A program made the position numbers and the translations under genes. Positions 9,224 through 63,909 of a stretch of 64,000 nucleotides of DNA are shown here, piece by piece (the first letter of the stretch is position 1; the number at the start of each line of letters is the position of its first letter). Below the pieces are notes generated by a model. It did no database searches, had not been told where the DNA came from, and saw only the letters and a list, made by a program, of their open reading frames with translations. The stretch comes from Oscillospiraceae bacterium (GTDB lineage: Bacteria; Bacillota; Clostridia; Oscillospirales; CAG-272), in assembly GCA_015065295.1 (NCBI GenBank), contig SVQN01000004.1:3047-67046 (forward strand). The letters run 5' to 3'.

Positions 9224-9276
9224 GGGGAAAACTTTTTTGAAAAAAAGTTTTCCCCGAACCCCTTTCAAAAAACTTC
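9224..9276 (+). repeat. Rep-1 copy A1 (hairpin + tail)
   Basis: GGGGAAAACTTTTTTGAAAAAAAGTTTTCCCC-GAA-CCCCTTTCAAAAAACTTC. Confidence 0.9.
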
Positions 9277-9350
9277 AAACTGGGTAAAATGATAAAGTTT
9301 GTGCAGATTTTTTGTTGGATTTGCACCGCACCTTGTTGATTCATTTGTCT

Positions 9351-9404
9351 GAAAGTTTTTGAGGTGGGGTTTGGGGAGGAACTTTTTTCAAAAAGTTCCT
9401 CCCC
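9351..9404 (-). repeat. Rep-1 copy A2 (inverted relative to A1)
   Basis: GAAAGTTTTTGAGGTGGGGTTTGGGGAGGAACTTTTTTCAAAAAGTTCCTCCCC. The stem variant GGGGAGGAAC/GTTCCTCCCC stays complementary. Confidence 0.85.
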
Positions 9405-9418
9405 ATCGAACTCACGTT

Positions 9419-9450
9419 AAAAAAGGCACCGCCGGAACAGCGATGCCTTT
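9419..9450 (-). terminator. Rho-independent terminator of the 9460-10044 gene
   Basis: Minus strand: GGCATCG-9 nt loop-CGGTGCC followed by T6. It lies 10 nt after the stop. Confidence 0.75.
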
Positions 9451-9459
9451 GAAATCCGT

Positions 9460-10044
9460 TTAACGGAAGCGTTTTTTGATTTCTTCCAGATCGTGAAGAA
9501 CCTTTTTGCAGACGTGCAGAACATACCCGGAAATCATCAGCCCGACGGAGCAGAGAATCACGGGAATGCTCATCCCGCCGATCACGATTTCCAGGATCAG
9601 TGCTGCCGCTCCGATCAGAATCAGCGCGCACATTACAACGGTCAGCAAGCCGCCGTAGGGTTCGCGGTGCAGATCGAGCGGTTCGTCCACGGGCAGCTCC
9701 ATCTGCGGAAGCGCGAAGGAATCGTCCTGCGGGAACAGCTCTTCCGCGAGTTTCGCCGGTTCTGCGTCCCGTGCGGCGGCAGCTTTCACAGCTTCACGTT
9801 CCTCGCGTTCGCGGAGCTTTTGACGGTCGTGCAGTTCACAGATTTTCAGGAGGTATTCCATCCCCTTGTCCGTCACACCGGCGTTCCGCAGATTTTTTTC
9901 GTTGGAAAGCAGACGGCGCGTGGAGGACGATGTGGATGCGTCCATGAATTTGATGAACGGGAGCATGAACTTTTTGCAGCTGTCGCAGAGTCGGGTCTTG
10001 TCGCCGGACGGAATGTCACATCCACAGTTATAGCATTTCGGCAT
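9460..10044 (-). CDS. hypothetical membrane protein with N-terminal zinc ribbon
   Basis: 194 aa. It has CxxC...CxxC at the N-terminus (CYNCGC...CDSC), a charged coiled middle and two C-terminal TM helices. GGAGG RBS. No family recognised. Confidence 0.6.
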   Translation of the reverse strand: MPKCYNCGCDIPSGDKTRLCDSCKKFMLPFIKFMDASTSSSTRRLLSNEKNLRNAGVTDKGMEYLLKICELHDRQKLREREEREAVKAAAARDAEPAKLAEELFPQDDSFALPQMELPVDEPLDLHREPYGGLLTVVMCALILIGAAALILEIVIGGMSIPVILCSVGLMISGYVLHVCKKVLHDLEEIKKRFR

Positions 10045-10093
10045 GGGAAAACCTCCTCATTCATAAGATTTCTGTCAGCGGATGTTCGCCTGT

Positions 10094-17074: not shown

Positions 17075-17127
17075 GAAGTTTTTTGAAAGGGGTGTGGGGA
17101 AAACTTTTTTTCAAAAAAGTTTTCCCC
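17075..17127 (-). repeat. Rep-1 copy B
   Basis: GAAGTTTTTTGAAAGGGGTGTGGGGAAAACTTTTTTTCAAAAAAGTTTTCCCC. Lies between the SBP1 stop and the kinase start. Confidence 0.9.
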
Positions 17128-17148
17128 ACGAAACAATATTTGATTCAA

Positions 17149-18705
17149 TTAACCTTCCGGGAAGAAGAATTCGTTGGTCTTGGCGAGCTGCTTGGTGGTC
17201 GCCTTGGTCATCTTCTGGAGAGTGGAGGCGATGGCGTCGGAACCGGCAGTGATCGCGTTGTTGACGGTGCTGCGGATGGAGACGCTGCCGAAGTGGATGT
17301 TGTAGTAGAGTTCGTCGAAGACGAGGTGGAGCATACGGACGGTATCCTGGTCGCGGGCAACCTTACCGGTCAGGGTTACGTTGACGTACGCGTCGACGAC
17401 GGTGTCATGCGATGCTGCGGAGAAGACGTCGAGAACGTGGAGGGTACGGGCCGGGTCTTCAGAGGTTACGGGGATCATCTGCATGAAGGGGTTCAGAATG
17501 ATGGAGTAGTAACGATCCTGGTCTTCGTTGTACTTCGGAGGCGGGAGAACGCCGAAGTCGGCTTCCATGTCGCGGAGTACGCGGGTCCATGCCATACATT
17601 CGGAGTAGAAGAGCGCGCCGTTTTCGGTGAAGATGGTTTCCTGAGCACGGTCGCCGAGACCGCGGAGGTGGCTTGCATGAGCGGAGGAACGGACGTCAAA
17701 TACGGCGTTCTGCTGAGTGAAGAGGAGGTTGATGACCTTGTTGTACATATCCACAAAGTTTTCGCCGGCGGTACCGTCGATGAGTCGGCCGGTGTCGGGA
17801 TCCTTCGTGACAAACTTCGCACCCATGCCGCACATCAGAAGGTCGGACATGATTTCGGTGTAGCTGATCCAGCCGTACTGGTCCATGTCGGTCATCTGGC
17901 CGTCGCCGTCCTTGTCCGAGATAACGGACGTGCAGAGTTCGGTGAACTTGTCAACCGTCCACTGGTTGTTGTCTACGAGGTCATAGGGATTTTCCAGACC
18001 GTGCTGGGAAAGCATTTCCTTGTTGAAGTACAGGGAACGGATACTGTCGAAACGGGTGGTGTCCGCGTCGCTGGTCATGAAGTACAGCTGATTGTTGATG
18101 GTCAGGCTGTCGCGCGCGTTCTGATCCCACCATACGTTGGAGAAATCTACGCCTGCGTCGGGAGCGATGGTGTTCAGGTCGAAGACATTGCCTTCCATGG
18201 CAACCGCATAGCAGTTCATGAGGGTGACGTTGCCGTAGTCGAAGTCGTTGGAGCCGGACTTGACCGCGTTCTTGAGAATGTTCATGGAGTCGCCGTCATG
18301 AAGTTCCACGATGCTGATGTTGAGGAATTCTTCGGTACGGTTTTCACGTTCAATGAACGCGTCGTTTACGGGTTCACCGGTCGTTTCTTCGGGGGAGATG
18401 GAGTTGTAGGAATACCAGCTTGCGGTACAGCCGTTGAGAATGGTGTATTCGTAGCCTTCGTAGTCCTTCTTCTGTACGCCTGCGGTCCAGTCGTAGTCGG
18501 CTTCGATGGCGATCAGACCTTCGCCTTCGCCGGAACCTTCGGCAGCCGCGTCGCCGCCTTCCGCAACGGTTTCTTCGGCCGCGTCGGGAGCGGTGGTGGG
18601 AGTGGTTTCATCCGCATTGGTGCTGCTTTCGGAACAGCCGGTCAGAACGGTAGACGCCAGCATGATCGCGCAGAGCAGAGCGGAGAGGAGTCTCTTGGAA
18701 TTCAT
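17149..18705 (-). CDS. extracellular solute-binding lipoprotein (SBP paralog 1)
   Basis: 518 aa with a signal peptide and lipobox (VLTGC) and an acidic low-complexity linker. It shares blocks with the other six paralogs (VNDA, WWDQ, DKDGDGQMTDMDQYG). GGAGG RBS. Confidence 0.85.
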   Translation of the reverse strand: MNSKRLLSALLCAIMLASTVLTGCSESSTNADETTPTTAPDAAEETVAEGGDAAAEGSGEGEGLIAIEADYDWTAGVQKKDYEGYEYTILNGCTASWYSYNSISPEETTGEPVNDAFIERENRTEEFLNISIVELHDGDSMNILKNAVKSGSNDFDYGNVTLMNCYAVAMEGNVFDLNTIAPDAGVDFSNVWWDQNARDSLTINNQLYFMTSDADTTRFDSIRSLYFNKEMLSQHGLENPYDLVDNNQWTVDKFTELCTSVISDKDGDGQMTDMDQYGWISYTEIMSDLLMCGMGAKFVTKDPDTGRLIDGTAGENFVDMYNKVINLLFTQQNAVFDVRSSAHASHLRGLGDRAQETIFTENGALFYSECMAWTRVLRDMEADFGVLPPPKYNEDQDRYYSIILNPFMQMIPVTSEDPARTLHVLDVFSAASHDTVVDAYVNVTLTGKVARDQDTVRMLHLVFDELYYNIHFGSVSIRSTVNNAITAGSDAIASTLQKMTKATTKQLAKTNEFFFPEG

Positions 18706-22010: not shown

Positions 22011-22051
22011 GAAAACAGACGCAGGAAAACGAAAACCTGCGTCTGTTTTTT
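22011..22051. terminator. Bidirectional terminator between convergent SGNH and membrane-protein genes
   Basis: ACAGACGCAGG-10 nt-CCTGCGTCTGT, flanked by an A-run on the left and T5 on the right. Confidence 0.8.
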
Positions 22052-22783: not shown

Positions 22784-22822
22784 AAAAAACAGACGCAGAG
22801 TTTCCCGCTCTGCGTCTGTTTT
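22784..22822 (-). terminator. Terminator of SBP2
   Basis: A6-CAGACGCAGAG-TTTCCCG-CTCTGCGTCTG-T4. On the minus strand the hairpin is followed by T6. Confidence 0.8.
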
Positions 22823-24447: not shown

Positions 24448-24487
24448 AAAAAACAGACACAGAGCGGGAAACTCTGTGTCTGTTTTT
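24448..24487 (-). terminator. Terminator of SBP3
   Basis: A6-CAGACACAGAG-CGGGAAA-CTCTGTGTCTG-T5. It is the same hairpin as at 22790, with the loop inverted and one compensated base pair. Confidence 0.8.
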
Positions 24488-30169: not shown

Positions 30170-30223
30170 GAAAAAAACACCGAATTCCATACAGAATTTC
30201 ACGATACTTTGGAGGATATCACC

Positions 30224-31102
30224 ATGAAAAGAATCGGCGGAGTTATTCCCGCAATTTTCACCCCGTTCGCAAAGGACGGCAGCGTCAACACCGAACAGCT
30301 CATCAAACTGGCGGAATTCAACCTCGCGCAGGGCGTTTCCGGCTTCTACGTCAACGGAAGCTCCGGCGAAGCGTTCCTTCTGTCCGATGAAGAACGCCGT
30401 CACGTTTACAAGACCGTGAAGGAAACCGTCGGCGACCGCGCAGCCTGCATCGCGCACGTTGGCTGCATTTCGACCGCACAGGCGATCGGCTTTGCCAAGT
30501 ATGCGGCAGAACTGAAGTACGACGCGGTTTCCGCGGTTGCTCCGTTCTACTACAAGTTCTCCGCGAAGGAAATCATGAAGTATTACTTCGACATCGTGGA
30601 TGCCTGCGGTATGCCGCTTCTGATTTACAACATTCCCGCGCTTTCCGGCGTGGAACTGTCCTTTGACGACATCTGCACGCTTCTGAAGGACGAACGCATC
30701 GTCGGGGTCAAGTACACCGCGTCCGACTTCTTCAAGATGCAGCGCATCAAGAACGCGTTCCCGGACAAGGTCATGCTCAACGGCTACGACGAAATGTTCG
30801 CGTGCGGCATGATGTCCGGTGCGGACGGCGGTATCGGCTCGACCTACAACTTCATGGCTGGCAAGTTCATCAAGATCATGGAACTCTTCGCAAAGAAGGA
30901 CATCGAAGGAATGCAGGCGATCCAGAACGACGCGAACCTCGTCATCGCGGAACTCCTGAAGTACGGCGTCATGCCCGGCTCCAAGGCAATCCTCGACACG
31001 TTCGGTCTCGACATGGGCGACAGCCGTCCTCCGTTCTCCGCTCTGACCGATGAACAGAAGAAGGCCCTGACCGACTATGTGGTGCCGCTGATTAAGAAAT
31101 AA
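30224..31102 (+). CDS. nanA: N-acetylneuraminate lyase (DapA/NanA family)
   Basis: GVIPAIFTPF...GFYVNGSSGEAFLLS...VGVKYT (Schiff-base Lys) closely parallels E. coli NanA. GGAGG lies 8 nt before ATG 30224; the track starts at TTG 30209. Confidence 0.85.
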   Translation: MKRIGGVIPAIFTPFAKDGSVNTEQLIKLAEFNLAQGVSGFYVNGSSGEAFLLSDEERRHVYKTVKETVGDRAACIAHVGCISTAQAIGFAKYAAELKYDAVSAVAPFYYKFSAKEIMKYYFDIVDACGMPLLIYNIPALSGVELSFDDICTLLKDERIVGVKYTASDFFKMQRIKNAFPDKVMLNGYDEMFACGMMSGADGGIGSTYNFMAGKFIKIMELFAKKDIEGMQAIQNDANLVIAELLKYGVMPGSKAILDTFGLDMGDSRPPFSALTDEQKKALTDYVVPLIKK

Positions 31103-31110
31103 AGTTTTTC

Positions 31111-31170
31111 GGGGAAAACCTTTTTAAGGAAAAGGTTTTCCCCGAACCCCTTTCCAAAACCTTTTTGAAC
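31111..31170 (+). repeat. Rep-1 copy C
   Basis: GGGGAAAACCTTTTTAAGGAAAAGGTTTTCCCC-GAA-CCCCTTTCCAAAACCTTTTTGAAC. Lies between nanA and the sialidase gene. Confidence 0.9.
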
Positions 31171-33260: not shown

Positions 33261-33309
33261 ACAGACAGAGCTCATCGAAGCCTTTGAGCGGTTTCGATGA
33301 GCTCTGTCT
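33261..33309. other. 17-bp-stem hairpin between convergent XRE genes (no U-tract)
   Basis: ACAGACAGAGCTCATCGAA-13 nt-TTCGATGAGCTCTGTCT. Confidence 0.6.
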
Positions 33310-38851: not shown

Positions 38852-38878
38852 AAGAAAATATATTTAAGGAGAAACACT

Positions 38879-43549: not shown

Positions 43550-45499
43550 ATGAGCATCGAAACTCTTGTTGAATTTTCCAATCGTTACGGTAAAAATGCG
43601 GCGTTCGTTCTTGCGGGCGGCGGCAATACCTCCTATAAGAACGACGAATATCTCTACATCAAGGGAAGCGGTACCTCCCTTGCAACCATCACCGAAGCTG
43701 GCTTCGTCAAGATGGAACGCGCGAGACTTGCGAAAATCTGGGAAAACCAGTACTCCGCAGACACCGCCACCCGTGAAGCAGAAGTTCTCCGCGACCTGAT
43801 GGCATCCAAGGCAATCGGCGAAGAAGCAAAGCGTCCGTCCGTCGAAACCCTTCTGCATGATCTGTTCCCGCAGACCTACATCCTCCACGTTCATCCGTCC
43901 TCCGTCAACGCAGTGACCTGCTGCGCGGGTGCGGAAGCGAAGGTAAAGGAACTCTTCCCGGAAGCCGTATGGGTTGACGAATGCGAACCCGGCTATATCC
44001 TCGCGGCAAACTGCCGTCAGAAGCTCCTCGCATATACTGAAGCGACCGGCAAGGCGGCTAACGTTGTCTTCCTCCAGAACCACGGCATCTTCTTCGCGGC
44101 AGACTCCTCCGAAGAACTCGACGTTGTTGTTGCTTCCGTGATGGACAAGATCGCGGCTCTCCTCACCGTAAAGCCCGACTTCTCCGAATGCGAAACCGAT
44201 ACCGCAGCGGCTGCAAAGATCGCTCCCGTTCTCCGTATGACCTACGATGCAAACGGCGACGCAGTCGTTGTCTTCACCTGCAACAAGGAAATCATGAAGT
44301 ACGCGGCATCTGCGGAAGCATTTACAACCCTCCGCGAACCGCTGTCCCCCGACCACATCGTATACTGCAAGGCAGAACCCCTCTTCATCGAAGACTTTAC
44401 CGTTGCCGGCATTCAGGCGGCGTTCGCTGAACTTACCGCTCGCCGCGGCTTCCAGCCGAAGGTTGTTTTCGCCAAGGGCATCGGTATGTTCACCATCGGC
44501 AAGACCGTGAAGGAAGCGAAGACCGCTGCTGCTGTATGGCAGGATGCAATGACGATCACCACGCTGGCTGAAAACTTCGGCGGCGTACGCCACATGGCTC
44601 CCGCGATGGTTGACTTCATCGTAAACTGGGAAGTTGAAAGCTACCGCGCGAAGGTAAGCCTTGCAGGCGGTTCCGCGAAGGCTCTCGCAGGCAAGATTGC
44701 AATTGTCACCGGCAGCGCACAGGGCTTCGGTGCGGGCATTGCGAAGTACCTCGCAAGCGAAGGCGCATCCGTTGTGATCGCCGACATGAATATCGCCGGT
44801 GCGGAAAAGACCGCAGCGGAAATCACGGAAGAAACCGGCGCGGCTACCCTTGCGGTTGCGGCAAACGTATCCGACGAAGACAGCGTCCGTGCGATGATCG
44901 AAAAGACCGTTCTCACATTCGGCGGTCTCGACGTATTTGTCAATAATGCGGGCATCGTCCGTGCAGGTTCTCTCGAAGAAATGACCAAGTCGAACTTCGA
45001 ACTCGTTGCGGCTGTCAACTACACCGCATACTTCCTCTGCGCGAAGTACGCATCTGCTGTTATGAAGCTCGAACGCGCGGCTTCTCCGGAATACATGACC
45101 GACATCGTGGAAATCAACTCCAAGTCCGGTCTGTCCGGCTCCAACAAGAACTTTGCATACGCAGGCTCCAAGTTCGGCGGCATCGGTCTGACCCAGTCCT
45201 TCGCCATGGAACTGGCTCCTTACGGCATCAAGGTCAACGCTGTCTGCCCGGGCAACTTCCTGAACGGTCCCCTGTGGTCCGATCCGGAAAAGGGTCTGTT
45301 CGTACAGTACCTGAACGCAGGCAAGGTTCCCGGCGCGAAGACCGTGGAAGACGTAAAGAAGTTCTACGAATCCAAGGTTCCGCTCGGACGCGGCTGTGAA
45401 ATCGAAGACGTAGCGAAGGCCGTTCTCTACATCATCGACCAGAAGTACGAAACCGGTCAGGCAGTCCCTGTCACCGGCGGTCAGGAAATGCTCAAGTAA
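43550..45499 (+). CDS. bifunctional class-II aldolase / short-chain dehydrogenase (RhaD-like fusion)
   Basis: 649 aa with an N-terminal aldolase/adducin-like half. The C-terminal SDR half has TGSAQGFG (TGxxxGxG) and YAGSKFG (YxxxK). Confidence 0.8.
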   Translation: MSIETLVEFSNRYGKNAAFVLAGGGNTSYKNDEYLYIKGSGTSLATITEAGFVKMERARLAKIWENQYSADTATREAEVLRDLMASKAIGEEAKRPSVETLLHDLFPQTYILHVHPSSVNAVTCCAGAEAKVKELFPEAVWVDECEPGYILAANCRQKLLAYTEATGKAANVVFLQNHGIFFAADSSEELDVVVASVMDKIAALLTVKPDFSECETDTAAAAKIAPVLRMTYDANGDAVVVFTCNKEIMKYAASAEAFTTLREPLSPDHIVYCKAEPLFIEDFTVAGIQAAFAELTARRGFQPKVVFAKGIGMFTIGKTVKEAKTAAAVWQDAMTITTLAENFGGVRHMAPAMVDFIVNWEVESYRAKVSLAGGSAKALAGKIAIVTGSAQGFGAGIAKYLASEGASVVIADMNIAGAEKTAAEITEETGAATLAVAANVSDEDSVRAMIEKTVLTFGGLDVFVNNAGIVRAGSLEEMTKSNFELVAAVNYTAYFLCAKYASAVMKLERAASPEYMTDIVEINSKSGLSGSNKNFAYAGSKFGGIGLTQSFAMELAPYGIKVNAVCPGNFLNGPLWSDPEKGLFVQYLNAGKVPGAKTVEDVKKFYESKVPLGRGCEIEDVAKAVLYIIDQKYETGQAVPVTGGQEMLK

Positions 45500-45515
45500 T
45501 TGATTATAGTTTTTC

Positions 45516-45575
45516 GGGGGAAACCTTTTTGAGGAAAAGGTTTCCCCCGAACCCCTTTCCAAAACCTTTTTGAAC
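45516..45575 (+). repeat. Rep-1 copy F
   Basis: GGGGGAAACCTTTTTGAGGAAAAGGTTTCCCCC-GAA-CCCCTTTCCAAAACCTTTTTGAAC. Starts 16 nt after the aldolase/SDR stop. Confidence 0.9.
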
Positions 45576-50182: not shown

Positions 50183-50226
50183 ACGAACGATTTTATTATT
50201 TTAAATAAATGAAAAGGAGAACCATC

Positions 50227-51717
50227 ATGAAGACGAAACGAACCCTCGCATGGATTCTTGCCCTTTTGATGCTTGCTTCCTCGCTGGCGGCGTGCAGTGC
50301 TCCCGAAGAAGCGTCGGCAGAGGAAACCGGCGCACCGTCGGCAGAAGCGGAAACGGTTCCGGAAGAGGCGGAAACCGAAGACGTGGACAGCCGTGCGTCG
50401 CTGTCGGACAATCTTCCGGAAGGACTGGATTACGAAGGCTACGAATTCCGGATCTTCACTTACTCGCCGACCGCGTATGAAGTGGAGGAACTGACCGGCG
50501 ACGTGGTCGAGGACTCCAAGTACGCGCGGAATCTGGACATTCAGGAACGATTCAACGCGGTCATCAAAGCGATCGCAACGCCCGGGATCGCGGAGCTGGA
50601 TGCCGGTCTGAAGGCGAGCGTCATGGCGGGCGACCATGCGTATGACATTGCCATCCCGCACCAGATTCAGAGCGGCCCCGGCTTCATCAACGGAGATGTC
50701 ATCCGTCCGTGGAACGACGTACCTTACATTGACGCGACCCGTCCGTGGTGGAACCAGACGATCAACGAAACCATCCGGATTCTCGACCAGCAGTATTACA
50801 TAGCGGGCTATATCACCATGCCGACGCCCTTCTGTATGTATGCGAACAAGGGTCTTCTGGCGGATTACGGCTACGAGGACATCTACGGCATCGTAAAGGA
50901 AGGCACATGGACGCTTGACAAGCTGGCGGAAATCACGTCGAAGGCATACGTTGACCTTGACGGCGGTGGTACGGTCGATACGACTGACCAGTACGGCATC
51001 AGCTTCAACAATGACAACACGACGCTGAACTTCATGTACTCGTCCGGAATGTACTCGGTTATCATCGACGAAACGACGGGTATGCCGGTTCCGAATGTAT
51101 TCAACGACAAGATGATCTCGCTCATCGACAAGATGTACAATCTGATCTACGAAGGAAACCAGACGCTGTTCACGACGTACAACACGCAGAAGGAACAGGG
51201 CATCGGCGGCTTCCACGAAGGACGGATTCTGTTCCTCTGCGGCGGTGTCGGCGACCTTGCAACGCACCGTGACGCGGACATCGACCTCGGCGTTATCCCC
51301 TATCCGAAGTGGGACGAAGCGCAGGACACCTACCACACGCACGTTGACGCATGGAACGGTATGCTCTGCATTCCGAAGACCGCGCAGGACAGCGACCTCG
51401 AGCGCACCGGCGTGATCGTCGAAGCGATGGCGGCCTACACCTACAAGTTCGTCATCCCGGACTACTACGACGTTGCTCTCGGCACAAAGTACGTCCGCGA
51501 CGAACAGTCCCGCGAAATGCTCGACCTCATCTTCGACGGTGTCGTCTACGACTTCGGCTACATCTTCGACTCCTGGAACGGCTGCACCTGGACGCTCCCG
51601 AACCTCATGACCCAGAAAAAGACCGACCTCGCCTCCTACTGGAAGGGCATCGAAAAGAAAGTCAACAAGTTCTACGAAAAGCTCTACAAGTCCGTTGAGG
51701 AAAACGCGAACGGCTGA
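50227..51717 (+). CDS. extracellular solute-binding lipoprotein (SBP paralog 5)
   Basis: Start at ATG 50227 (MKTKRTL; GGAG 9 nt upstream). Lipobox LAAC, DLDGGGTVDTTDQYG loop. Confidence 0.85.
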   Translation: MKTKRTLAWILALLMLASSLAACSAPEEASAEETGAPSAEAETVPEEAETEDVDSRASLSDNLPEGLDYEGYEFRIFTYSPTAYEVEELTGDVVEDSKYARNLDIQERFNAVIKAIATPGIAELDAGLKASVMAGDHAYDIAIPHQIQSGPGFINGDVIRPWNDVPYIDATRPWWNQTINETIRILDQQYYIAGYITMPTPFCMYANKGLLADYGYEDIYGIVKEGTWTLDKLAEITSKAYVDLDGGGTVDTTDQYGISFNNDNTTLNFMYSSGMYSVIIDETTGMPVPNVFNDKMISLIDKMYNLIYEGNQTLFTTYNTQKEQGIGGFHEGRILFLCGGVGDLATHRDADIDLGVIPYPKWDEAQDTYHTHVDAWNGMLCIPKTAQDSDLERTGVIVEAMAAYTYKFVIPDYYDVALGTKYVRDEQSREMLDLIFDGVVYDFGYIFDSWNGCTWTLPNLMTQKKTDLASYWKGIEKKVNKFYEKLYKSVEENANG

Positions 51718-51742
51718 TTGGTTTACAGGGGGATGTTTTCTT

Positions 51743-51795
51743 GGGGAAACCTTTTTGAGGAAAAGGTTTCCCCAAACCCCTTCCAAAACCTTTTT
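51743..51795 (+). repeat. Rep-1 copy G
   Basis: GGGGAAACCTTTTTGAGGAAAAGGTTTCCCC-AAA-CCCCTTCCAAAACCTTTTT. Follows the SBP5 stop. Confidence 0.9.
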
Positions 51796-51831
51796 AGACT
51801 GCGGTTGCCATTTGGTTACTGCAGATTTTTT

Positions 51832-52208
51832 CTTTTTGGGGGTAAAGAGATAAGGCGCCTTTGTGCAGCTGACAGCGGGGGCTGTCTCCAATGCATACGA
51901 ATATGGTGAAGCGAGCTCGCAGGGGCCACCGAGACCCTGCTCGCCGTAGCCGTGGAGTATGTTTTGAAATCTTGAAAGGGTTTTGAATTCAGCTACATGG
52001 TTAGTCTGACATATAGGAAACCTGTATGGCGAGTCTAAATCGAAGGTTTCCTTCACGGCGAGGGAAGTCAGGGTGGCAAGGCGTGAGCCTTGTCGCGGCC
52101 CCTGACTTCCCCAGAACGATTTTGAAAGAGTTTCAAACCAACGAAATGTCAGCGGATTGGGATATCCAAAATGGCTACGCACAGACCCAAGAAAATCCCT
52201 TATAAAAC
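51832..52208. ncRNA. Candidate structured non-coding cargo between inverted Rep-1 copies G and H (function unknown)
   Basis: No convincing ORF. It holds at least 6 local hairpins, for example the 12-bp stem GGGAAGTCAGGG (52062-52073) / CCCTGACTTCCC (52100-52111) enclosing CAAGGC-GTGA-GCCTTG. A long-range 8-bp pairing joins 51940-51947 with 52055-52062. The transcribed strand is unknown. Confidence 0.3.
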
Positions 52209-52245
52209 AAAAAATCTGCACAGTACCAAATCACTGTAGCAGACC

Positions 52246-52298
52246 AAAAAGGTTTTGGAAGGGGTTTGGGGGAACCTTTTCCTCAAAAAGGTTCCCCC
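52246..52298 (-). repeat. Rep-1 copy H (inverted partner of G)
   Basis: AAAAAGGTTTTGGAAGGGGTTTGGGGGAACCTTTTCCTCAAAAAGGTTCCCCC. Follows the Zn-ADH stop on the minus strand. Confidence 0.9.
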
Positions 52299-52326
52299 AA
52301 CGTATCCCCCGAACGAAAAATCAATG

Positions 52327-53610
52327 TTACGCTTCAACGCCAGCGTATTCGAGCAGACGCTTTTCGGCTGCGGCGCACCAGAGGTTGCCGGCTGCCTTGC
52401 AGAGAACGTCGAGATCCGCGTAGAGAGCACCGAGAGCGGTACCGGCGTTTTCTTCCGCAGCCTTGCCGAAGTCTTCGACAGCGGTGAGCGGGAGATCGAC
52501 GTGGGTGTAGATGAGCTTCTTGGCACCCTTGATCTTGGTGAGGTTGAGGGTGGTGTCCGCGCAGGCGTTCAGACCGCCGATGTGGGTAATCATGCCCGCC
52601 GGATTAATCAGCTTCTTTTCCATGAGGGCGATGGATTCCTTCATGTCGTCTGTGTTGCCGCCGGAGGTGCCGACGATGTGGGTTGCACCGTAGTGAACGT
52701 TGTAGAAGTTGAACATTGCGGAGAACGCGGTGTTGGTCGGGCCTGCGAAGAAGTTCAGACAGCCGTCACGCGCGAGGAGAGCATCGCCCATTTCAACAAC
52801 GGACTGAACCGGCGCGTAGACGAATACGTCGTTGAAGCCTTCGCCGTCCGTGAAGGAACGGAGGTATTCGGTGGGATTTTCAATCGTCGCGGTGTTGATG
52901 TAGTGCAGCTCAACGCCGTACTTTGCTGCTTCTTCCACGGTGAGCAGTTCTGCTGCGCGTGCCAGTCTCGCGTCGTCAATGTCCGTTACGATCAGGAGCT
53001 TCGGAGCGCGTCCGCCGTGAACCGCGTAGTCCGCACAGCCGAGACCCATCGGGCCTGCGCCTGCCAGAATCGCCATGTTGCCGCCTTCCACTACGCCCAT
53101 GTCGTGAACGTATACGCCCGGACGGGTGTGGTAGTTTGCGTGGTAGCCGCCGACGATGCAGCTCATCGGTTCCGCAAGGCTGCCGTAGAAGTATGCGTCG
53201 CCGTCATACGGGAGCAGACAGTCGCAGAGCATAACTTCTTCCGGAATGATGACATAAGTAGCTGCGCCGCCGCAGTACTTGTAGGAGTAACCGGGGGAAG
53301 CGAGAGAACCCTTGTAGTTGATCGCGGGCTGGATGACGAACTTGTCGCCTGCCTTGAACTGGTCAGCCCACTTTGCGCCGACCTTTACGATCTTGCCGCA
53401 GAATTCGTGACCGATGATAACCGGATTTTCCGCAACGTCGTCCGGAACTCTCTTGTGGTTGGAGCCCTGGGATGCTGCCTTATAGGAAGACATGCAGATA
53501 CTGTCGGAAATGACGCACGCGAGAATTTCGCCGTCGGTGATTTCCGGAAGTTCGAATTCTTCCATGCGAAGATCCATCTGACCGTACAGTCTTACAGCCT
53601 TAGTATTCAT
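52327..53610 (-). CDS. zinc-dependent medium-chain dehydrogenase/reductase (polyol/sugar-phosphate dehydrogenase-like)
   Basis: 427 aa with the GHEFCGKIVKVG zinc-ADH signature and a Rossmann GAGPMGLG motif. Confidence 0.75.
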   Translation of the reverse strand: MNTKAVRLYGQMDLRMEEFELPEITDGEILACVISDSICMSSYKAASQGSNHKRVPDDVAENPVIIGHEFCGKIVKVGAKWADQFKAGDKFVIQPAINYKGSLASPGYSYKYCGGAATYVIIPEEVMLCDCLLPYDGDAYFYGSLAEPMSCIVGGYHANYHTRPGVYVHDMGVVEGGNMAILAGAGPMGLGCADYAVHGGRAPKLLIVTDIDDARLARAAELLTVEEAAKYGVELHYINTATIENPTEYLRSFTDGEGFNDVFVYAPVQSVVEMGDALLARDGCLNFFAGPTNTAFSAMFNFYNVHYGATHIVGTSGGNTDDMKESIALMEKKLINPAGMITHIGGLNACADTTLNLTKIKGAKKLIYTHVDLPLTAVEDFGKAAEENAGTALGALYADLDVLCKAAGNLWCAAAEKRLLEYAGVEA

Positions 53611-53650
53611 GAGATTTCTCCTTTGGTTTGAAGATTCAAATTACAGATTT

Positions 53651-53679
53651 ATTATAACACGTTTTATAATTTCCGTCAA
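53651..53679 (-). promoter_or_regulatory. Putative Zn-ADH promoter
   Basis: Minus strand: TTGACG-17 nt-TATAAT. Confidence 0.55.
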
Positions 53680-53734
53680 TCCGGAAAATTCAACAAGATT
53701 CCACTTTGGAAATGTTGGATGTTATGAAACTATC

Positions 53735-53778
53735 AAAAATGTGAAGTGTGTTAAATTTAAAACATACTTCACATTTTT
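53735..53778. terminator. Bidirectional AT-rich terminator between trpS and the Zn-ADH promoter
   Basis: AAAAATGTGAAGT...ACTTCACATTTTT. Confidence 0.7.
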
Positions 53779-53911
53779 CAATTACAAATAATTTTGTCTC
53801 CACATCCCACTGTGCCGAGGTAACGAGGTCGCGTACGATTTTCTTGGAATTTGTATTCCAGAATTTGATGCACCGGAATTGCAGAAACTATATTTGTCTC
53901 ATTCCCTTCCC

Positions 53912-53961
53912 AAAAAGGTTTGGAAGGGGTTTGGGGGAACCTTTCCTTAAAAGGTTCCCCC
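53912..53961 (-). repeat. Rep-1 copy I
   Basis: AAAAAGGTTTGGAAGGGGTTTGGGGGAACCTTTCCTTAAAAGGTTCCCCC. Lies 8 nt after the trpS stop on the minus strand. Confidence 0.9.
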
Positions 53962-53969
53962 AAGAAAAA

Positions 53970-54977
53970 TTACCGTCTCTTCGGTTCGATGAAACCGATC
54001 TTGCGTCTTACCTTGGACATGGTGCGCGCGGCGTCGCGGCCTGCGGCTTCGGCACCCTTGGCCATGACGTCTTCGAGGTAGGCCTTGTCTGCGGAGAGAC
54101 GGGCGAATTCCGCCTGAACGGGAGCGAGCGCGTCCGCGCAGGTTTCGCCGACCGCGAGCTTGAAGTCGCCGTAGCCCTTGCCTTCGAATTCGGCTTCGAT
54201 TTCGTCTTCCGTCTTGCCGGTGAACGCACCGTAGATGGACATCAGGTTCATGATGCCGTCCTTGCCTTCGCCGCGGCGGATCTCACAGCCGGAGTCGGTT
54301 ACGGCGCGCTTGAATTTGCGGATGATGGCGTCCTTCGGGTCGAGAATGCGGACAACCGCGTTTTCGTTTTCGTCGGACTTGGACATCTTCTTCGTCGGTT
54401 CCGCGAGAGACATGATCTTCGCCGTGGTCGGGGGAATGTACGGTTCCGGAACAACGAACGTGTCGCCGTAAATCTGGTTGAAGCGGGTCGCAATGTCGCG
54501 GGTCAGCTCGAGATGCTGCTTCTGGTCAACGCCGACCGGTACCATCTCGGTCTGGTACAGCAGAATGTCCGCCGCCATCAGGGACGGGTAGGTGAACAGC
54601 CCCGCGTTGATGTTGTCGGCGTTCTTCGCGGACTTGTCCTTGAACTGGGTCATGCGGGAGAGTTCGCCGAACATGGTGTAGCAGTCGAGAATCCATCCCA
54701 GTTCCGCGTGTCCGGAAACGTGGCTCTGTACGAACAGCGTGTTCTTTTCCGGATCAAGACCGCACGCAATGTAGAGCGCGAGCGTTTCGTAGGTGCGCTT
54801 GCGGAGGTCTGCCGGAACCTGACGGACGGTGATCGCGTGTTCGTCAACTACGCAGTAGTAGCAGTGATAGGTGTCGGAGAAATCCGCAAAATTCCGGATT
54901 GCGCCGAGGTAGTTGCCGATGGTCAGCACTCCGGACGGCTGTACGCCGGAGAATACAACTTTTTTATCCTTGTACAT
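53970..54977 (-). CDS. trpS: tryptophan--tRNA ligase
   Basis: 335 aa with SGVQPSGVLTIGNYLGA (HIGH region) and KMSKS. Confidence 0.95.
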   Translation of the reverse strand: MYKDKKVVFSGVQPSGVLTIGNYLGAIRNFADFSDTYHCYYCVVDEHAITVRQVPADLRKRTYETLALYIACGLDPEKNTLFVQSHVSGHAELGWILDCYTMFGELSRMTQFKDKSAKNADNINAGLFTYPSLMAADILLYQTEMVPVGVDQKQHLELTRDIATRFNQIYGDTFVVPEPYIPPTTAKIMSLAEPTKKMSKSDENENAVVRILDPKDAIIRKFKRAVTDSGCEIRRGEGKDGIMNLMSIYGAFTGKTEDEIEAEFEGKGYGDFKLAVGETCADALAPVQAEFARLSADKAYLEDVMAKGAEAAGRDAARTMSKVRRKIGFIEPKRR

Positions 54978-59585: not shown

Positions 59586-60374
59586 TCAGAAGAGTTCGTC
59601 AAGCAGGCGGTAATAGCGGAGAAGTTCGCGGTCGGGCGTGATTCCGAGAGCGTCGAACAGCCGGTCGGGATCAAAACCTTCGCGGACCCTGCCGCCGTAG
59701 GAACCGTTCATGTTCCACGTCAGGCTGCGGTGACAGAGAGAAATGTCCTGATACGGGTCGGCGATTCCGCTGTCCCCGAGGTCGATGAAGCCGGAAAGAC
59801 GGCCGTTTTCCGCGAAAATATTCGGCAGACAGTAGTCTCCATGGGACAATACGGGTGTTTCCGATGGACGGTTGTCGTACAGCCACGCGAGCAGATGTTC
59901 CGGAGAGGCGAATCCGCCGGGGCCGAACGTTGCAGGATCGACGGCATTCACGTCCACCTGACCGTTCACGACATGACGTTCCGCCGCCATCAGATGACGG
60001 TCGAGACGGCTGTCGCACGGACATCCGGAAATATCAGTTTTCCACAGGATGTGCATCCCTTCCGCGAGGATTTCAAGAAGAACGTCCGCGTTGTCGAGAT
60101 ATTCGTCCGCGCAGGACATTTTCCCTGGAACGCGCGACATCAGGAGATACCGCATCCCGTCGGAAACCTGCGCGTGAAGCACCTGCGGAGCGGGGAGATT
60201 TTTCGATGCCATCCACGAGAGCATGGAGACTTCGCGGTCGTGCGCGTCGGAGTATGCGCCGATTTTCAGCACCATGTCGTCGAAACAGAGTACCTGAGAG
60301 CCGGACATTCCCACGTTGTCAAGGGTGTACGGACGGTCTCCGAGGAGAGTCCGGAGTTCAGTCGGAAGGAACAT
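59586..60374 (-). CDS. aminoglycoside 3'-phosphotransferase-family kinase, APH(3')-like
   Basis: 262 aa with SHGDYCLPNIF, GFIDLGDSGIADPYQD and the C-terminus YYRLLDELF, as in APH(3') enzymes. The ATG overlaps the SBP7 stop (TAATG). Confidence 0.82.
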   Translation of the reverse strand: MFLPTELRTLLGDRPYTLDNVGMSGSQVLCFDDMVLKIGAYSDAHDREVSMLSWMASKNLPAPQVLHAQVSDGMRYLLMSRVPGKMSCADEYLDNADVLLEILAEGMHILWKTDISGCPCDSRLDRHLMAAERHVVNGQVDVNAVDPATFGPGGFASPEHLLAWLYDNRPSETPVLSHGDYCLPNIFAENGRLSGFIDLGDSGIADPYQDISLCHRSLTWNMNGSYGGRVREGFDPDRLFDALGITPDRELLRYYRLLDELF

Positions 60375-61867
60375 TATTCTTCAATAAAATTCTTAATCAT
60401 TCGTTCGTAGGTCTTGTCCATGACCTTCTGCTTGGAGGTGAATTTGGAAGCATACGCGCCGGGATCCTTGAAGAGGTCGGAAAGCTGCCATGTCCAGCCG
60501 TTCCATCCGCAGTAGAGGTACGCGAAGTCCATGACGCGGCTGTCGAGGACAATCTGCATCATTTCCACGGATTCTTCGTCGCGGGCAACCTTGGTCTGGA
60601 GCGAAACGTCAACGAACGCGGGAACGACGTTGTTCGTGGAGTACGCGGACATCGCTTCGATCAGCGCGCCGGTCATTTCGGGATTCTTGATGACGACCGG
60701 AACGGAAATGCAGTTGCATCCTGCGTCGCAGAGGGTTGCGTAGGATTCCTGTGCGGGATCGTTCTTCGGAAGGGGAAGAACGCCGAACGTGCCTTCGAAA
60801 TCGCGTGCGTGACCGTAATAGTGGTGGAGCTGCGCCGGTGCGAAGACTGCGATCTGCTGCATCATCGCGTACAGCGGGTAGCTGTGGCCGTTGAAGACGG
60901 TGCTTCCCGCCTGATTGTTCAGTTCGTAGAACTTTTCGGCAACTTTCTGGGCTTCTTCGGAGCCGAGCAGATGTTCCATGGTGTAGTCTTCGTTGATCTT
61001 CATGAACCGCAGACCCGCACCGTAGATGAGAGCCGCACCCTTGCATCCGTCGATGCCGTTGGAACCCATCGTGAAGCCGTAGCGGTCGCCTTCGTCGCGC
61101 ACACCGTCGCCGTTGATGTCGATGTAGATTTCGGAAGTGATTTCCTTCAGCTTGTCAATCGTCCATTCGCCTTCGCGGACGAGGTCATAGAGATTTTCGA
61201 TGCCCATGTCCGTGGCGATGTCCTTGTTGAAGCACATCGACCAGGTCTGACCGACGTAGCTGATGCAGAGGTCGCTTACCATCAGGTAGAGCTTGTCGTT
61301 CAGGGACGCGGATTCGATAACGGACGCGGGATACCATCTCTGGGTAAAATCGAGGTGGGGAATCTCGCTGAGGTTCATGTAATTCCCGTTCAGCGCGTCC
61401 GACGAGGTCTGGGCAAGCTGATTGAGGATGATATCGTAGGCAGGGTCGCCTGCCTGAACGGTCGCCTTGACAGTGTTGGAAACCGTCGTGTAGTCGGTGG
61501 CGAGTGGTTCCGCGAAGGAGACGTTGAAGCGTTCTTCCATTGCGGCGTTCCGGTTGTAGATCGCGTCGTTGACTACTTCGCCGGTGATTTCTTCGCTGGC
61601 AATGTCGCTGCATCCGTCGCTCTTCTGTCCGGCGATGGTAACGGTCTCGCCGCCGAAATCAAGTTCCGGAACATTGTCGGTGAGAACTTCTTCGGTTTCC
61701 GTCTCGGTTTCTTCGGCGATCACTTCGACCTCGGAGGAAACCTCTCCGGAGGTGGGAGCCGTCTCATCCGAACCGGTACCGGATTCACTGCACGAGGTCA
61801 GAACCGGATTTGCCAGCATGAGCAGCGTCAGAAAAAAGGAAAGTTTACGCAGAGCAGTTGTTTTCAT
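60374..61867 (-). CDS. extracellular solute-binding lipoprotein (SBP paralog 7)
   Basis: Start at ATG 61867 (MKTTALRKLSFF...LTSC lipobox). The track ORF (to 61945) reads into Rep-1 copy J. DINGDGVRDEGDRYG loop. Confidence 0.85.
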   Translation of the reverse strand: MKTTALRKLSFFLTLLMLANPVLTSCSESGTGSDETAPTSGEVSSEVEVIAEETETETEEVLTDNVPELDFGGETVTIAGQKSDGCSDIASEEITGEVVNDAIYNRNAAMEERFNVSFAEPLATDYTTVSNTVKATVQAGDPAYDIILNQLAQTSSDALNGNYMNLSEIPHLDFTQRWYPASVIESASLNDKLYLMVSDLCISYVGQTWSMCFNKDIATDMGIENLYDLVREGEWTIDKLKEITSEIYIDINGDGVRDEGDRYGFTMGSNGIDGCKGAALIYGAGLRFMKINEDYTMEHLLGSEEAQKVAEKFYELNNQAGSTVFNGHSYPLYAMMQQIAVFAPAQLHHYYGHARDFEGTFGVLPLPKNDPAQESYATLCDAGCNCISVPVVIKNPEMTGALIEAMSAYSTNNVVPAFVDVSLQTKVARDEESVEMMQIVLDSRVMDFAYLYCGWNGWTWQLSDLFKDPGAYASKFTSKQKVMDKTYERMIKNFIEE

Positions 61868-61911
61868 AATGTAGTTTAACCTTTCATGGAAAATCCCCTG
61901 TCCATTTATAT

Positions 61912-61986
61912 GAAAAGGTTTTTGGAATGGGGTTACAAGTTGCAAAGCAACTTGGGGAAACCTTTTTCCTTAAAAAAGGTTTCCCC
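61912..61986 (-). repeat. Rep-1 copy J (with extra inserted hairpin)
   Basis: Carries an extra hairpin CAAGTTGC-AAA-GCAACTTG between tail and stem. Located between the fucI stop and the SBP7 start. Confidence 0.85.
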
Positions 61987-62002
61987 GAAAAATTTTATTC
62001 AC

Positions 62003-63814
62003 TTAAATCGTTCTCTTGAACTGAGGACCGTAGGTGGCGCAAGCGCGGTAGTCTGCGCCTTCCTTGTCCATGCCGAATGCGTTCCATGCAGCCGGACGGA
62101 AGATCTTTTCGGTCGGTACGTTGTGCATTGCAACCGGGATGCGGAGGATGGAGCAGAGGGTGATGAGGTCTGCGCCGATGTGGCCGTAGCTGATCGCGCC
62201 GTGGTTTGCGCCCCAGTTGTTCATGACGTCATACGCGGTCTTGAACGGGGAGCCTTCCTTGCCGTCGCAGCGCGGTGCGAACCATGTGCACGGCCAGGTG
62301 TAGTCGGTTCTCTTCCAGAGAGTGTCGGTAACTTCGTCGGGAAGATTTACGGTCCAGCCTTCGGCGATCTGGAGAACCGGGCCGAGACCCTGTACGAGGT
62401 TCAGACGGATCATGGTGCAGGGCATTTCTGCCTTGGTTACGAAACGGGAGGAGTAGCCGCCGCCGCGGAAGTAGCCGAGGTCAGCGAAGTTCCATGTGGT
62501 GTTTTCCATGATGGCCTTCTGGTCCGCTTCGGTTACGTTGTACCATTCCTTGATGAGGGCGTTGCCGTTTTCGTCCTTTGCTTCCGCATTGGCGTCCACG
62601 CAGCACGCGCCGGAATTGATGAGGTGGATGAAGCCGCCGTTTTCGAGGGCTACGCCGTCTACGTCATAGCCGGTCGCTCTCTTGACTGCTTCGGGGCTCC
62701 AGTAGGTACGAACGTCAGCGAACATCTGCGGACGGTTGGTGAGGAGCTTCATGAAGAGCATGCCGAGACCGTTGAGAACGTCGTTTTCGGTAGCGAGGAT
62801 GTAGGGTTCGCGCGCGCCGTTCCAGTCGAAGGAGGAGTTGAGCATTGCTTCCGGGAAGTCGCAGTTCGGATAGAAGTCCGTCCACTGTCTCTGACCCTGG
62901 AAACCTGCGGCGATGGCGTTGTGGCCGACCATTTCTTCTTCGCAGCCTTCGGGGAGGTTCTGGTTGCCGTTCATGAGGTCCTTGATGATGACCATCATCT
63001 TAACGACGAATTCCCACTGAGCGTCCTTTTCTTCGCGGGACTTCTGCATATCTTCGGGGTTCTTGTCGAAGCCTTCGATTGCGTTTGCCTTGACCCATGC
63101 CATTGCCTTTTCGAATTCGGCCTTGTCATAGATTTCTTCGGTCATGCGGCGGATGATTTCCACTTCGTCAACGGATTCGACGCGCATACCGAGGTATTCT
63201 TCGATGAACTTGGAGTCGATGATGGAGCCGCCGATGCCCATGCAGATGGAGCCGATCTGGAGGTAGGACTTGCCGCGCATGGTCGCAGCAGCAACCGCCG
63301 CGCGTGCGAAGCGGAGCATCTTTTCCTTGACGTCTTCGGGCATATCGGTCACTTCGTCAAGATTCTGAACGTCGTGACCGTAGATGCCGAACGCCGGGAG
63401 ACCCTTCTGCGCGTGGGTAGCGAGAACGGAAGCGAGGTAAACCGCACCGGGTCTTTCGGTACCGTTGAAGCCCCATACCGCCTTGATGGTATTGGGATCC
63501 TGGTCCATGGTTTCGGAGCCGTAGCACCAGCAGGGAGTAACGGTGATGGTGATGTCAACGCCTTCCTTCTTGAACTTGGAAGCGCAGGCAGCAGCTTCGC
63601 CGACACGGCCGATGGTGGTGTCCGCGATGATAACCTTCACGGGTTCGCCGTTGGAGTACTTGAGATTTTCGGTGAGGAGCTTCTGAGCGGCCTTTGCCAT
63701 GGCCATGGTCTGGTCTTCGAGGGATTCACGAACCTTCAGGGGGCCGCGTCTGCCGTCGATGGTGGGGCGGATACCGATTACGGGATAATCGCCGACAAGT
63801 CTGGATGTTGCCAT
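62003..63814 (-). CDS. fucI: L-fucose isomerase
   Basis: 603 aa from ATG 63814. [33 protein letters not shown] parallels the E. coli FucI N-terminus. The track ORF (to 63901) reads through Rep-1 copy K. Confidence 0.92.
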
Positions 63815-63855
63815 TATGATAATTCCTTTCGAGAATAAGATTTGGGATTTTTCTC

Positions 63856-63909
63856 GGGGAAAACTTTTTTGAAAAAAAGATTTTCCCCGAACCCCTTTCA
63901 AAAAACTTC
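63856..63909 (+). repeat. Rep-1 copy K
   Basis: GGGGAAAACTTTTTTGAAAAAAAGATTTTCCCC-GAA-CCCCTTTCAAAAAACTTC. Upstream of fucI. Confidence 0.9.

Follow-up and report, generated by a model that had tools for sequence, protein, structure and literature searches.

Intrastrand-triplex repeats of the BoxC or PIT type reportedly go back to work by Hoyne and Maher in 2000-2002. In Escherichia coli K-12 these elements, which follow the TMECO pattern CCCTCNCCC-N3-6-GGGNGAGGG-N3-GGGNGAGGG, are present in 23 copies that are always intergenic and include five inverted pairs; they form a triplex in vitro, have neither promoter nor terminator activity and have been linked only to genomic instability, and repeats of this kind are found in E. 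coli, other Proteobacteria and Cyanobacteria (Holder et al. 2015, PMC4666352). Here we describe Rep-1, a repeat present in a stretch of 64,000 nucleotides (nt) of an Oscillospiraceae bacterium recovered from JGI gut or rumen metagenomes (assembly GCA_015065295.1, contig SVQN01000004.1, positions 3,047 to 67,046 of the forward strand), hereafter the window. Rep-1 is a real, dispersed, non-coding intergenic repeat family of the REP/BoxC kind, is widespread in gut and rumen Clostridia and beyond, and apparently is undescribed so far. On balance, its pattern of co-variation suggests to us a BoxC-like intrastrand-triplex repeat of a new, strand-switching design.

An earlier note, made from the letters of the window, had pointed to 12 copies of a hairpin-plus-tail element, and all 12 are present at the places it named, the coordinate given there for minus-strand copies being that of the tail end. 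Each unit reads, from 5' to 3', as a T-rich flank, a hairpin, a linker of usually 3 nt and a conserved tail. The flank is usually TTTTTCTY in the window and ATTTATC or AGTAAGAC in other lineages. The hairpin comprises 12-15 bp, its left arm being built of G3-5, a purine run, C1-2 and a T run, followed by a loop of 4-5 nt and the complementary right arm; the 3-nt linker is GAA, AAA or ACA, and the tail runs in the order C3-4, T run, C1-2, A run, C1-2, T run. The family consensus is GGGGAAAAC(C)TTTTT.... The predicted stability of the hairpin is -23 to -27 kcal/mol as RNA and -16 to -21 kcal/mol as DNA, and in the minimum-energy fold the tail is unpaired, having no Watson-Crick partner. A custom hairpin scan of both strands combined with a loose tail pattern found no copies in the window beyond the 12, a density of about one per 5 kb (12 copies per 64 kb). 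The search pattern put forward in the earlier note gave no matches in shuffled sequence and is narrower than the family, as it finds only three copies of the window exactly. The novelty claimed for the element appears to hold for the family and not for its kind: the window has no Rfam 15 match at the gathering threshold, and eight Rep-1 loci searched at E up to 1 gave only chance-level matches to microRNAs and small RNAs, yet intrastrand-triplex repeats of the BoxC/PIT/TMECO kind have already been described (PMC4666352). No description of the family in Clostridia or Ruminococcus was found in the literature searched, outside whose cover subscription journals lay.

The decisive property of Rep-1 is the way in which its tail changes with its stem. 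That the two co-vary had been noticed before, and this is borne out when 130 distinct copies, representing 66 stem/tail types, are parsed into blocks: the tail is the parallel complement of the left arm, read in the same 5' to 3' direction, with G answered by C, A by T, T by A and C by G, while the C block stays C. For the distal block the parallel complement is exact in 63 of the 66 types (permutations: mean 38, maximum 49), for instance TTTCT to AAAGA, TTTTTC to AAAAAG and TTCTTT to AAGAAA; the proximal block is one base short of the purine run in 58 of the 66 types (permutations: mean 25, maximum 37), and the C block has the same length in stem and tail in 59. Counted per position over 135 distinct copies, 98% of the proximal and 88% of the distal letters obey the rule. 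Examples of its operation are as follows.

Locus L099: left arm GGGAGGGGAAAC, tail CCCTCCCCTTC.
Locus L096: left arm GGGGAACCCTTTC, tail CCCCTCCCAAAG.
Locus L025: left arm ending ...TTTTCTTTC, tail ending ...AAAAGAAAG.
Ruminococcus: left arm GGGGGAAACCTTTCT, tail CCCCTTTCCAAAGA.
Copy E of the window: GGG stem, CCC tail.

The loop takes part as well. A loop GG accompanies CC after the A run of the tail in 17 of 23 cases as against 2 of 108 (Fisher 1.7e-14, not corrected for relatedness); the loops ending in GG are TAAGG and TGAGG, other loops go with a single C, and further loop-tail matches are a TGGG loop with CCC and a GTGGA loop with CCA. The co-variation is thus three-way and, with the loop, four-way. 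Where stems contain bulges, 26 of 27 lie in the 3' (right) arm, and the tail follows the 5' (left) arm.

We know of no templated mutational process that would yield mirror or parallel-complement repeats. Because neither such a process nor a protein-binding site known to us would explain letter-by-letter parallel co-variation, we read the tail rule as the trace of a third strand in the major groove. The hairpin of 12-15 bp would form in single-stranded DNA, perhaps in the transcript too, and past the 3-nt linker the tail would fold back along it. It would lie first parallel to the purine run of the 5' arm, placing C over G-C and T over A-T (pyrimidine motif), next cross the short C block, and then run antiparallel to the purine run of the 3' arm, placing A over A-T and G over G-C (purine motif); finally, its C or CC would pair in Watson-Crick fashion with the loop G or GG, with the T run following. 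The C block may be the place where the third strand crosses the groove. The opposite strand would offer G.G-C and A.A-T triplets and then T.A-T, a version that, going by triplex chemistry as summarised in PMC4666352, should need no protonation. On either strand half of the implied triplets belong to the purine motif, which is reported not to form in RNA (PMC4666352), and for this reason the full fold would be likeliest in single-stranded DNA; a partial version may form in RNA. We infer both that the triplex forms and which strand and molecule carry it.

The window illustrates the same rules within one contig. Its copies, lettered from left to right, are the following.

Copy A, 9216-9275, plus strand: hairpin 9224-9255, linker GAA, tail CCCCTTTCAAAAAA+CTT; left half of the convergent pair A/B, with a degenerate GTGCAGATTTTTTG module after it.
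Copy B, 9352-9412, minus strand: stem GGGGAGGAAC/GTTCCTCCCC, tail CCCCACCTCAAAAA+CTTT; right half of the pair A/B.
Copy C, 17076-17135, minus strand: stem as in A, linker ACA; between two cistrons, sense.
Copy D, 31103-31166, plus strand: 8 nt past the stop codon of nanA (DHDPS family), with the Shine-Dalgarno sequence of a BNR sialidase gene after the tail.
Copy E, 35473-35536, minus strand: GGG/CCC stem and CCC tail; in a divergent methyltransferase-MFS region.
Copy F, 38775-38859, minus strand: hairpin 38818-38851, tail 38775-38793; antisense, between radical-SAM and EngA genes.
Linker hairpin of copy F, 38794-38817: GTAGTTCCG-ATT-GCGGAACTAC.
Copy G, 45508-45571, plus strand: 16 nt past the stop codon of an aldolase/SDR fusion gene.
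Copy H, 51735-51795, plus strand: downstream of a lipoprotein-like gene of 502 aa; with I it makes up the convergent pair H/I, as its left half.
Terminator-like hairpin and T run after H, 51798-51835.
Copy I, 52246-52306, minus strand: after a zinc alcohol dehydrogenase (Zn-ADH) gene.
Terminator-like hairpin and T run after I, about 52205-52243, minus strand.
Copy J, 53912-53969, minus strand: directly after the trpS stop codon.
Copy K, 61913-61994, minus strand: after fucI; linker hairpin 61935-61951 (AAGTTGC-TTT-GCAACTT).
Copy L, 63848-63908, plus strand: upstream of and antisense to fucI, with one bulged A in the right arm.

Stems differ among these copies and remain complementary, so that the compensatory variation described before stands; 11 of the 12 are perfect, copy L with its bulged A being the exception. 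Between G and D an A-T to G-C change is compensated, and in the pairs H vs D, J vs I and E vs D run lengths shift jointly in left arm, right arm and tail. The small extra hairpins, which had been assigned to copies E and J, sit in fact in the sixth and eleventh copies (F, at 38775, and K, at 61912). Such optional hairpins are found in the linker only and themselves vary with compensation; restricted to this place, they would leave the three-strand fold undisturbed. That of copy F starts with GTAG and ends with CTAC, like the classical REP tag, and those of loci L102 and L112 and of copy K have a common ACTT/AAGT core with compensated variation. Copies A, F, H and I run on into a common module ending TGTGCAGATTTTTTGT, which in H and I still folds as a terminator-like hairpin with a T run. 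Copies A and B together form a composite foldback at 9203-9420, with 13-nt inverted termini ACGTGAGTTCGAT / ATCGAACTCACGT and a direct TAAAAAA on either side. To judge by these letters the composite looks MITE-like, perhaps by chance, and TAAAAAA may be a target-site duplication or may likewise be due to chance. The right-hand TAAAAAA is the T run of the terminator of the neighbouring gene.

All 12 copies of the window fall outside its Pfam-supported genes. Those next to Rep-1 are the following.

7884-9017, minus strand: iron alcohol dehydrogenase (Fe-ADH) gene.
30209-31102: nanA-like DHDPS gene, followed at 31190-32179 by a BNR sialidase gene.
Around copy E: divergent methyltransferase and MFS genes.
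Around copy F: a radical SAM gene, then EngA.
43550-45499: aldolase/SDR fusion gene.
52327-53610, minus strand: Zn-ADH gene.
53970-54977, minus strand: trpS.
62003-63901, minus strand: fucI.

Pfam support is lacking for the open reading frames (ORFs) adjoining A/B, C, H and the downstream side of K. As had been noted, seven copies lie in sense orientation shortly past a stop codon, from which 6-27 nt separate the start of C, D, G, H, I, J and K. The upstream gene is Pfam-supported for D, G, I, J and K, while for C (ORF 17149-18705) and H (ORF 50209-51717), whose upstream ORFs have no Pfam match, the call depends on ORF length and gene calls. Copy B is sense too: it follows a canonical terminator and begins 55 nt past the stop codon of the minus-strand ORF 9460-10044, for which Pfam gave no match. 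Copies A, F and L are antisense and E lies in its divergent region, which makes 8 of 11 copies sense; with five copies on the plus and seven on the minus strand, orientation follows the local gene and not one strand. Copies D, C and K are placed within tight gene spacers or operons, the next ribosome-binding site being a few nt past the tail. A further correction to the earlier note concerns J, which a strong promoter-like site, TTGACG-17-TATAAT, follows ahead of the ADH gene. The spacer concerned contains two features.

53679-53651, minus strand: promoter-like site in the trpS-ADH spacer.
53735-53778: 18-bp inverted repeat in the trpS-ADH spacer.

The ~500-aa proteins that had been called solute-binding proteins (17149-18705, 50209-51717 and the 60374-61945 region) have no Pfam match at E<=1e-3; the one after K begins with a lipoprotein signal peptide, and they may be a divergent solute-binding family.

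Outside the window the same preference is seen. The greedy ORF caller that we used is unreliable in a window of 54% G+C and put 37 elements inside spurious ORFs, and we therefore kept from its calls only a symmetric stop-codon test and classified the window copies by hand. Of 113 single copies elsewhere, 47 have a stop codon no more than 150 nt away on their 5' side and 19 on their 3' side, a bias with a binomial p of roughly 7e-4 on crude ORF calls. Rep-1 copies thus favour gene 3' ends in sense orientation.

The distribution of the family was followed with the pattern GGGGR-N16-32-YCCCCRAACCCCTTYCMAA in one genome per species, and Rep-1 units were found in at least 106 contigs from several phyla. 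Among the matches listed, the hosts are Ruminococcus flavefaciens FD-1, Y1, YL228, MA2007 and YAD2003, many metagenome-assembled genomes (MAGs) of Ruminococcus, Oscillospiraceae, Ruminiclostridium, Lachnospiraceae and unclassified Clostridia from ruminant and hindgut samples, several Thermodesulfobacteriota and Desulfomonilales MAGs, and one Lentisphaerae MAG. The core of the unit is common to these lineages and the flanks are lineage-specific. Paired copies are always convergent and never divergent, in the two pairs of the window as in 18 elsewhere. In R. flavefaciens each arm of a foldback longer than 330 bp contains the unit, and foldbacks of this size are seen in eight loci of this species and its relatives (L014, L042, L049, L012, L086, L022, L051 and L063). 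The second arm of these foldbacks carries a diverged copy GGGAGAACCCTTTTTCAAAAGGGTTTCCC with tail TCAAACTCCCTTCCTAAAAC, and their centre is an 18-bp perfect inverted repeat with compensated variation around a variable loop of 25-35 nt, which often carries a terminator of the other strand. The plasmid collection contained no Rep-1 match. The viral contigs gave five pattern matches, four of which are a non-hairpin sequence common to related contigs, and because only one true copy is found there phages are not an obvious vector. That copy (L195 2837-2880, IMGVR_UViG_3300014205_000166) may belong to a prophage or to a piece of chromosome wrongly classed as viral.

Comparison of orthologous loci reveals both retention and gain. 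The closest genome among the loci compared, a Eubacteriales MAG of a sister species (L057; FucI 96% identical as protein, fucI 94% as nucleotide sequence), keeps K and L at orthologous sites with an element identity of 93%, while the flanks of L are 46-63% identical and those of K 84% (5', into the fucI end) and 43% (3'). The differences are confined to the loop, the linker and one bulge: the K orthologue is without the linker hairpin and the L orthologue without the bulged A. An element conserved above its flanks in this way points to constraint or concerted evolution in place. Elsewhere the element is missing. The trpS-ADH spacer measures 374 nt in the window (53611-53969) as opposed to 28 nt (4992-5020) in L113, the nearest trpS relative (87% protein identity), which lacks about 346 nt of the window spacer, the missing DNA beginning with J; at the place of copy I it has a canonical terminator. 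In L018 (EngA 75% identical in amino acids) there is no copy between the radical-SAM and EngA genes, and an element follows EngA instead. Since 80 trpS-relative loci, 520 kb in total, contain no Rep-1 copy, the family appears to have been acquired and to have multiplied in certain lineages, as would suit a repeat that is, or once was, mobile; mobility, like function, we infer. The 100 ORFs adjoining elements represent 145 unrelated Pfam families, mostly housekeeping, and there is no transposase among the 25 commonest of these families. Terminal inverted repeats are present in the A/B composite (13 nt) and, as long inverted flanks, in composites of Thermodesulfobacteriota and Ruminococcus, and single copies show neither these nor a target-site duplication.

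What, then, would such an element do at gene 3' ends? Rep-1 would be, or would have been, a non-autonomous repeat that spreads alone or in convergent pairs and expands in particular lineages, and it would survive mainly at gene 3' ends in one preferred orientation to transcription, where a compact knot can be tolerated. In transcripts, the very stable hairpin would probably be a REP-like barrier that shields the upstream cistron without terminating transcription. The likeliest reading of Rep-1 is that of a structured DNA repeat, tolerated at the 3' ends of genes and perhaps of use there as a REP-like barrier. A stronger proposition, that it represents a natural, selection-maintained alternate-strand intramolecular triple helix with a loop-tail pseudoknot lock, present in several phyla and having a real role at gene 3' ends as a DNA or RNA barrier or cap, is one that we put forward tentatively, as plausible and somewhat short of probable.

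Several points weigh against the three-strand fold and have to be set against the strength of the co-variation from which, at the level of sequence, the triplex is deduced. Neither strand offers a canonical triplet for the C block, C over a C-G pair, and on the C-tail strand a low pH would be required for four C+.G-C triplets in a row. An internal G of the purine run is ignored in some lineages, as the Thermodesulfobacteriota do in combining GGGGAGAA with CCCCTTT. The copies are related by descent, so that the permutation statistics overstate their independence, the orientation bias outside the window depends on crude ORF calls, and single copies were found with neither a transposase nor a target-site duplication. 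To our knowledge, 25 years have revealed no function for BoxC/PIT/TMECO, the analogue in E. coli. Finally, a transcription-linked orientation bias and intercistronic placement fit a role as RNA at least equally well.

That last possibility is the most serious of the alternatives. Rep-1 would then act in the sense transcript, where the hairpin, a partial major-groove triple helix of U.A-U and C+.G-C triplets and a loop-tail pseudoknot would cap the upstream cistron against 3'-to-5' exonucleases or define a processing site, in the manner of REP stabilisers or ENE/MALAT1, and would set differential expression within operons. The sense position near stop codons (8 of 11 copies in the window, 47 vs 19 elsewhere), the location of D, C and K between cistrons of tight operons, an orientation given by the local gene and not by the replication strand, the RNA stability of the hairpin (-23 to -27 kcal/mol) and the conservation of the element relative to its flanks all speak for this, and pyrimidine-motif intrastrand triplexes are possible in RNA (PMC4666352). 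However, half of the triplets would be of the purine motif (A.A-U and G.G-C), which is reported not to form in RNA, and four adjacent C+ would be required at neutral pH. Moreover, three window copies and many elsewhere are antisense, convergent pairs make one copy antisense by construction, and stem mismatches, G.T and A.C in equal number (3 vs 3), do not single out one strand by wobble pairing. We regard an element acting at the RNA level as unlikely, if well worth keeping in view.

Less probable still is that Rep-1 is a purely selfish REP/MITE-like (miniature inverted-repeat transposable element) sequence, mobilised in trans by a transposase, such as a Y1/HUH enzyme that works on DNA in single-stranded form; the enzyme would recognise hairpin and flanks, and the tail would be part of its recognition site, with no triplex involved. 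Its patchy, lineage-specific expansion (12 copies per 64 kb here vs none in 520 kb of relatives), its occurrence in several phyla, the conserved T-rich 5' flank as a possible target site, the A/B pair with its 13-nt inverted termini and 7-nt direct repeat, and near-identical copies with common flanks at different loci (A, C and L; B and L) would all be expected of such an element. Yet a protein site leaves the letter-by-letter parallel change of stem and tail across dozens of types unexplained, no known templated mutational process yields parallel-complement repeats, no transposase turned up among the 100 neighbouring ORFs (25 commonest Pfam families), and orthologous copies are conserved well above their flanks. 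If the substrate of the transposase were the folded triplex, selfish spread and the three-strand fold would be compatible.

An unusual intrinsic terminator, possibly a bidirectional one, is suggested by the position after stop codons, by the T run that ends the tail and by a terminator scan, which flags K, and is nevertheless very improbable. A plain terminator role had already been discounted, and rightly: no T run abuts the stem, which is followed by RAA-CCCC, and the T run comes about 20 nt further downstream. In addition, D, C and K sit inside operons a few nt ahead of the next ribosome-binding site, canonical terminators adjoin B, H and I, from which it follows that the organism uses ordinary ones, and the E. 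coli analogue has no terminator activity (PMC4666352).

The weakest explanation is the mechanism that the earlier note had proposed, an attenuator-like switch between mutually exclusive hairpins, the main stem and one formed by right arm and tail, which has next to no chance on grounds of energy and conservation: in the window subfamilies the tail AAAAC(C)TT is indeed identical to part of the left arm, but with the left arm barred from pairing copy D reaches -8 vs -27 kcal/mol for the main hairpin (about 19 weaker), five copies tested reach -0.1 to -10.5 kcal/mol by pairings other than the one proposed, the tail reads AAAGAC and not AAACCTTTCT in Ruminococcus and is without a left-arm copy in most other lineages too, many copies with a CC stem have a single C in the tail (C or CC tracks the loop and not the stem), and the co-variation is parallel, mirror-like, and not antiparallel Watson-Crick. 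The AAAACC/AAAAC resemblance arises because the A run of the tail mirrors the T run of the stem and the C or CC next to it matches the loop G or GG. We rejected a G-quadruplex or an i-motif as an explanation of the G and C runs, since neither accounts for the co-variation in A/T run length.

A few other features of the window deserve mention. A second family of small hairpins, of the form AAAACAGAC(A/G)CAG(A/G)G, 7-10 nt loop, CTCTGYGTCTGTTTT, has three copies in 2.5 kb with A/T runs on both sides, like bidirectional terminators.

22012-22049: second hairpin family, first copy.
22786-22822: second hairpin family, second copy.
24449-24487: second hairpin family, third copy.
33263-33309: 20-nt inverted repeat, 95% complementary (AGACAGAGCTCATCGAAGCC / GGTTTCGATGAGCTCTGTCT), between two ORFs and unrelated to Rep-1.
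51796-52245: the 450 bp between H and I, without a Pfam-supported gene, with a long G+C-rich hairpin at about 52063-52112 (GGGAAGTCAGGG...CCCTGACTTCCC).

Whether triplexes form in bacteria and what they do there has been an open question since BoxC/PIT elements were noticed, and the E. coli motif is so uniform that sequence alone cannot reveal selection for the fold. Rep-1 supplies what is missing there: across dozens of its subtypes, stem, tail and loop vary jointly by triplex rules, which is comparative evidence of unusual strength that a three-stranded fold of this sort matters in bacteria. Its presence in cultivable rumen bacteria such as R. flavefaciens FD-1 makes the question directly testable. 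If a selection-maintained triplex is the correct reading, the many co-varying subtypes would amount to the first comparative, evolutionary proof of a triplex that both forms and matters in living bacterial cells. Similar elements may have been overlooked, as nested blocks escape existing triplex finders, and in annotation Rep-1 accounts for a class of intergenic repeats that is very dense in Clostridia of the gut and rumen.

How does Rep-1 relate to systems already described? H-DNA mirror repeats and designed alternate-strand triplexes are said to have been studied by Sklenar and Feigon and by Beal and Dervan. The right arm and tail of Rep-1 make up a homopyrimidine mirror repeat of the H-DNA type, TTTTCCCC-GAA-CCCCTTT, and like the designed molecules Rep-1 has the order purine-loop-pyrimidine-loop-pyrimidine, a crossing at the purine-pyrimidine junction corresponding to the alternate-strand idea. 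Unlike H-DNA, it is a natural repeat family without a long homopurine tract, and its C block and distal half depart from the mirror symmetry.

In ENE elements (PAN/MALAT1 and transposon RNAs) an A-rich tail is clamped in a U-rich internal loop by U.A-U triples. With these Rep-1 would have in common a strand of the same molecule in the major groove of a helix at a transcript 3' end, possibly protecting from decay; it differs in that its tail runs C/T then A/G on a plain hairpin and in that the purine-motif half is not expected in RNA.

REPs are a precedent for the stabilisation of upstream mRNA. Like the REP/BIME/REPIN elements, Rep-1 units are short intergenic palindromes of high copy number at gene 3' ends, occur as singletons and inverted doublets, and form mosaics with other hairpins, as in the R. 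flavefaciens composite. However, neither GTAG nor CGTC marks the 5' foot of the Rep-1 hairpin, the linker hairpin of F alone starting with GTAG, no RAYT gene was seen among the 25 commonest Pfam families of the ORFs adjoining elements (whole genomes were not searched), and the long, asymmetric, co-varying tail of Rep-1 is absent from REPs. Rep-1 is therefore not a REP in the strict sense, nor is it a terminator or an Rfam family.

The closest relatives in kind remain the BoxC/PIT/TMECO repeats. Common to both are a hairpin, a second loop of 3 nt and a third block whose match to the stem obeys rules of the Hoogsteen type, for Rep-1 known from sequence; in Rep-1 this block follows the purine strand of the hairpin by Hoogsteen and reverse-Hoogsteen rules, the C block being the exception. 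Both are multi-copy and intergenic, occur singly or in inverted pairs, show no link to a mobility gene (for Rep-1 among the 25 commonest Pfam families of the ORFs adjoining elements) and are not terminators, and in both the complementary strands would yield different triplex classes. Then again, the sequence of Rep-1 is unrelated, with no TMECO pattern match in the window, and its hosts are Clostridia and others. Its stem is purine and then pyrimidine, so that the third strand must switch strands and two triplex classes are nested; the 3-nt second loop fits the 1-6 nt limit of ITxF, but each half has one connector of 18-25 nt, and because its nested blocks exceed this limit a search of the ITxF type would miss the element. 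Rep-1 adds a Watson-Crick match between loop and tail and an optional linker hairpin, and it is oriented with respect to genes, whereas TMECO shows no such bias (PMC4666352). Where TMECO presents one highly conserved consensus, Rep-1 presents many subtypes that co-vary.

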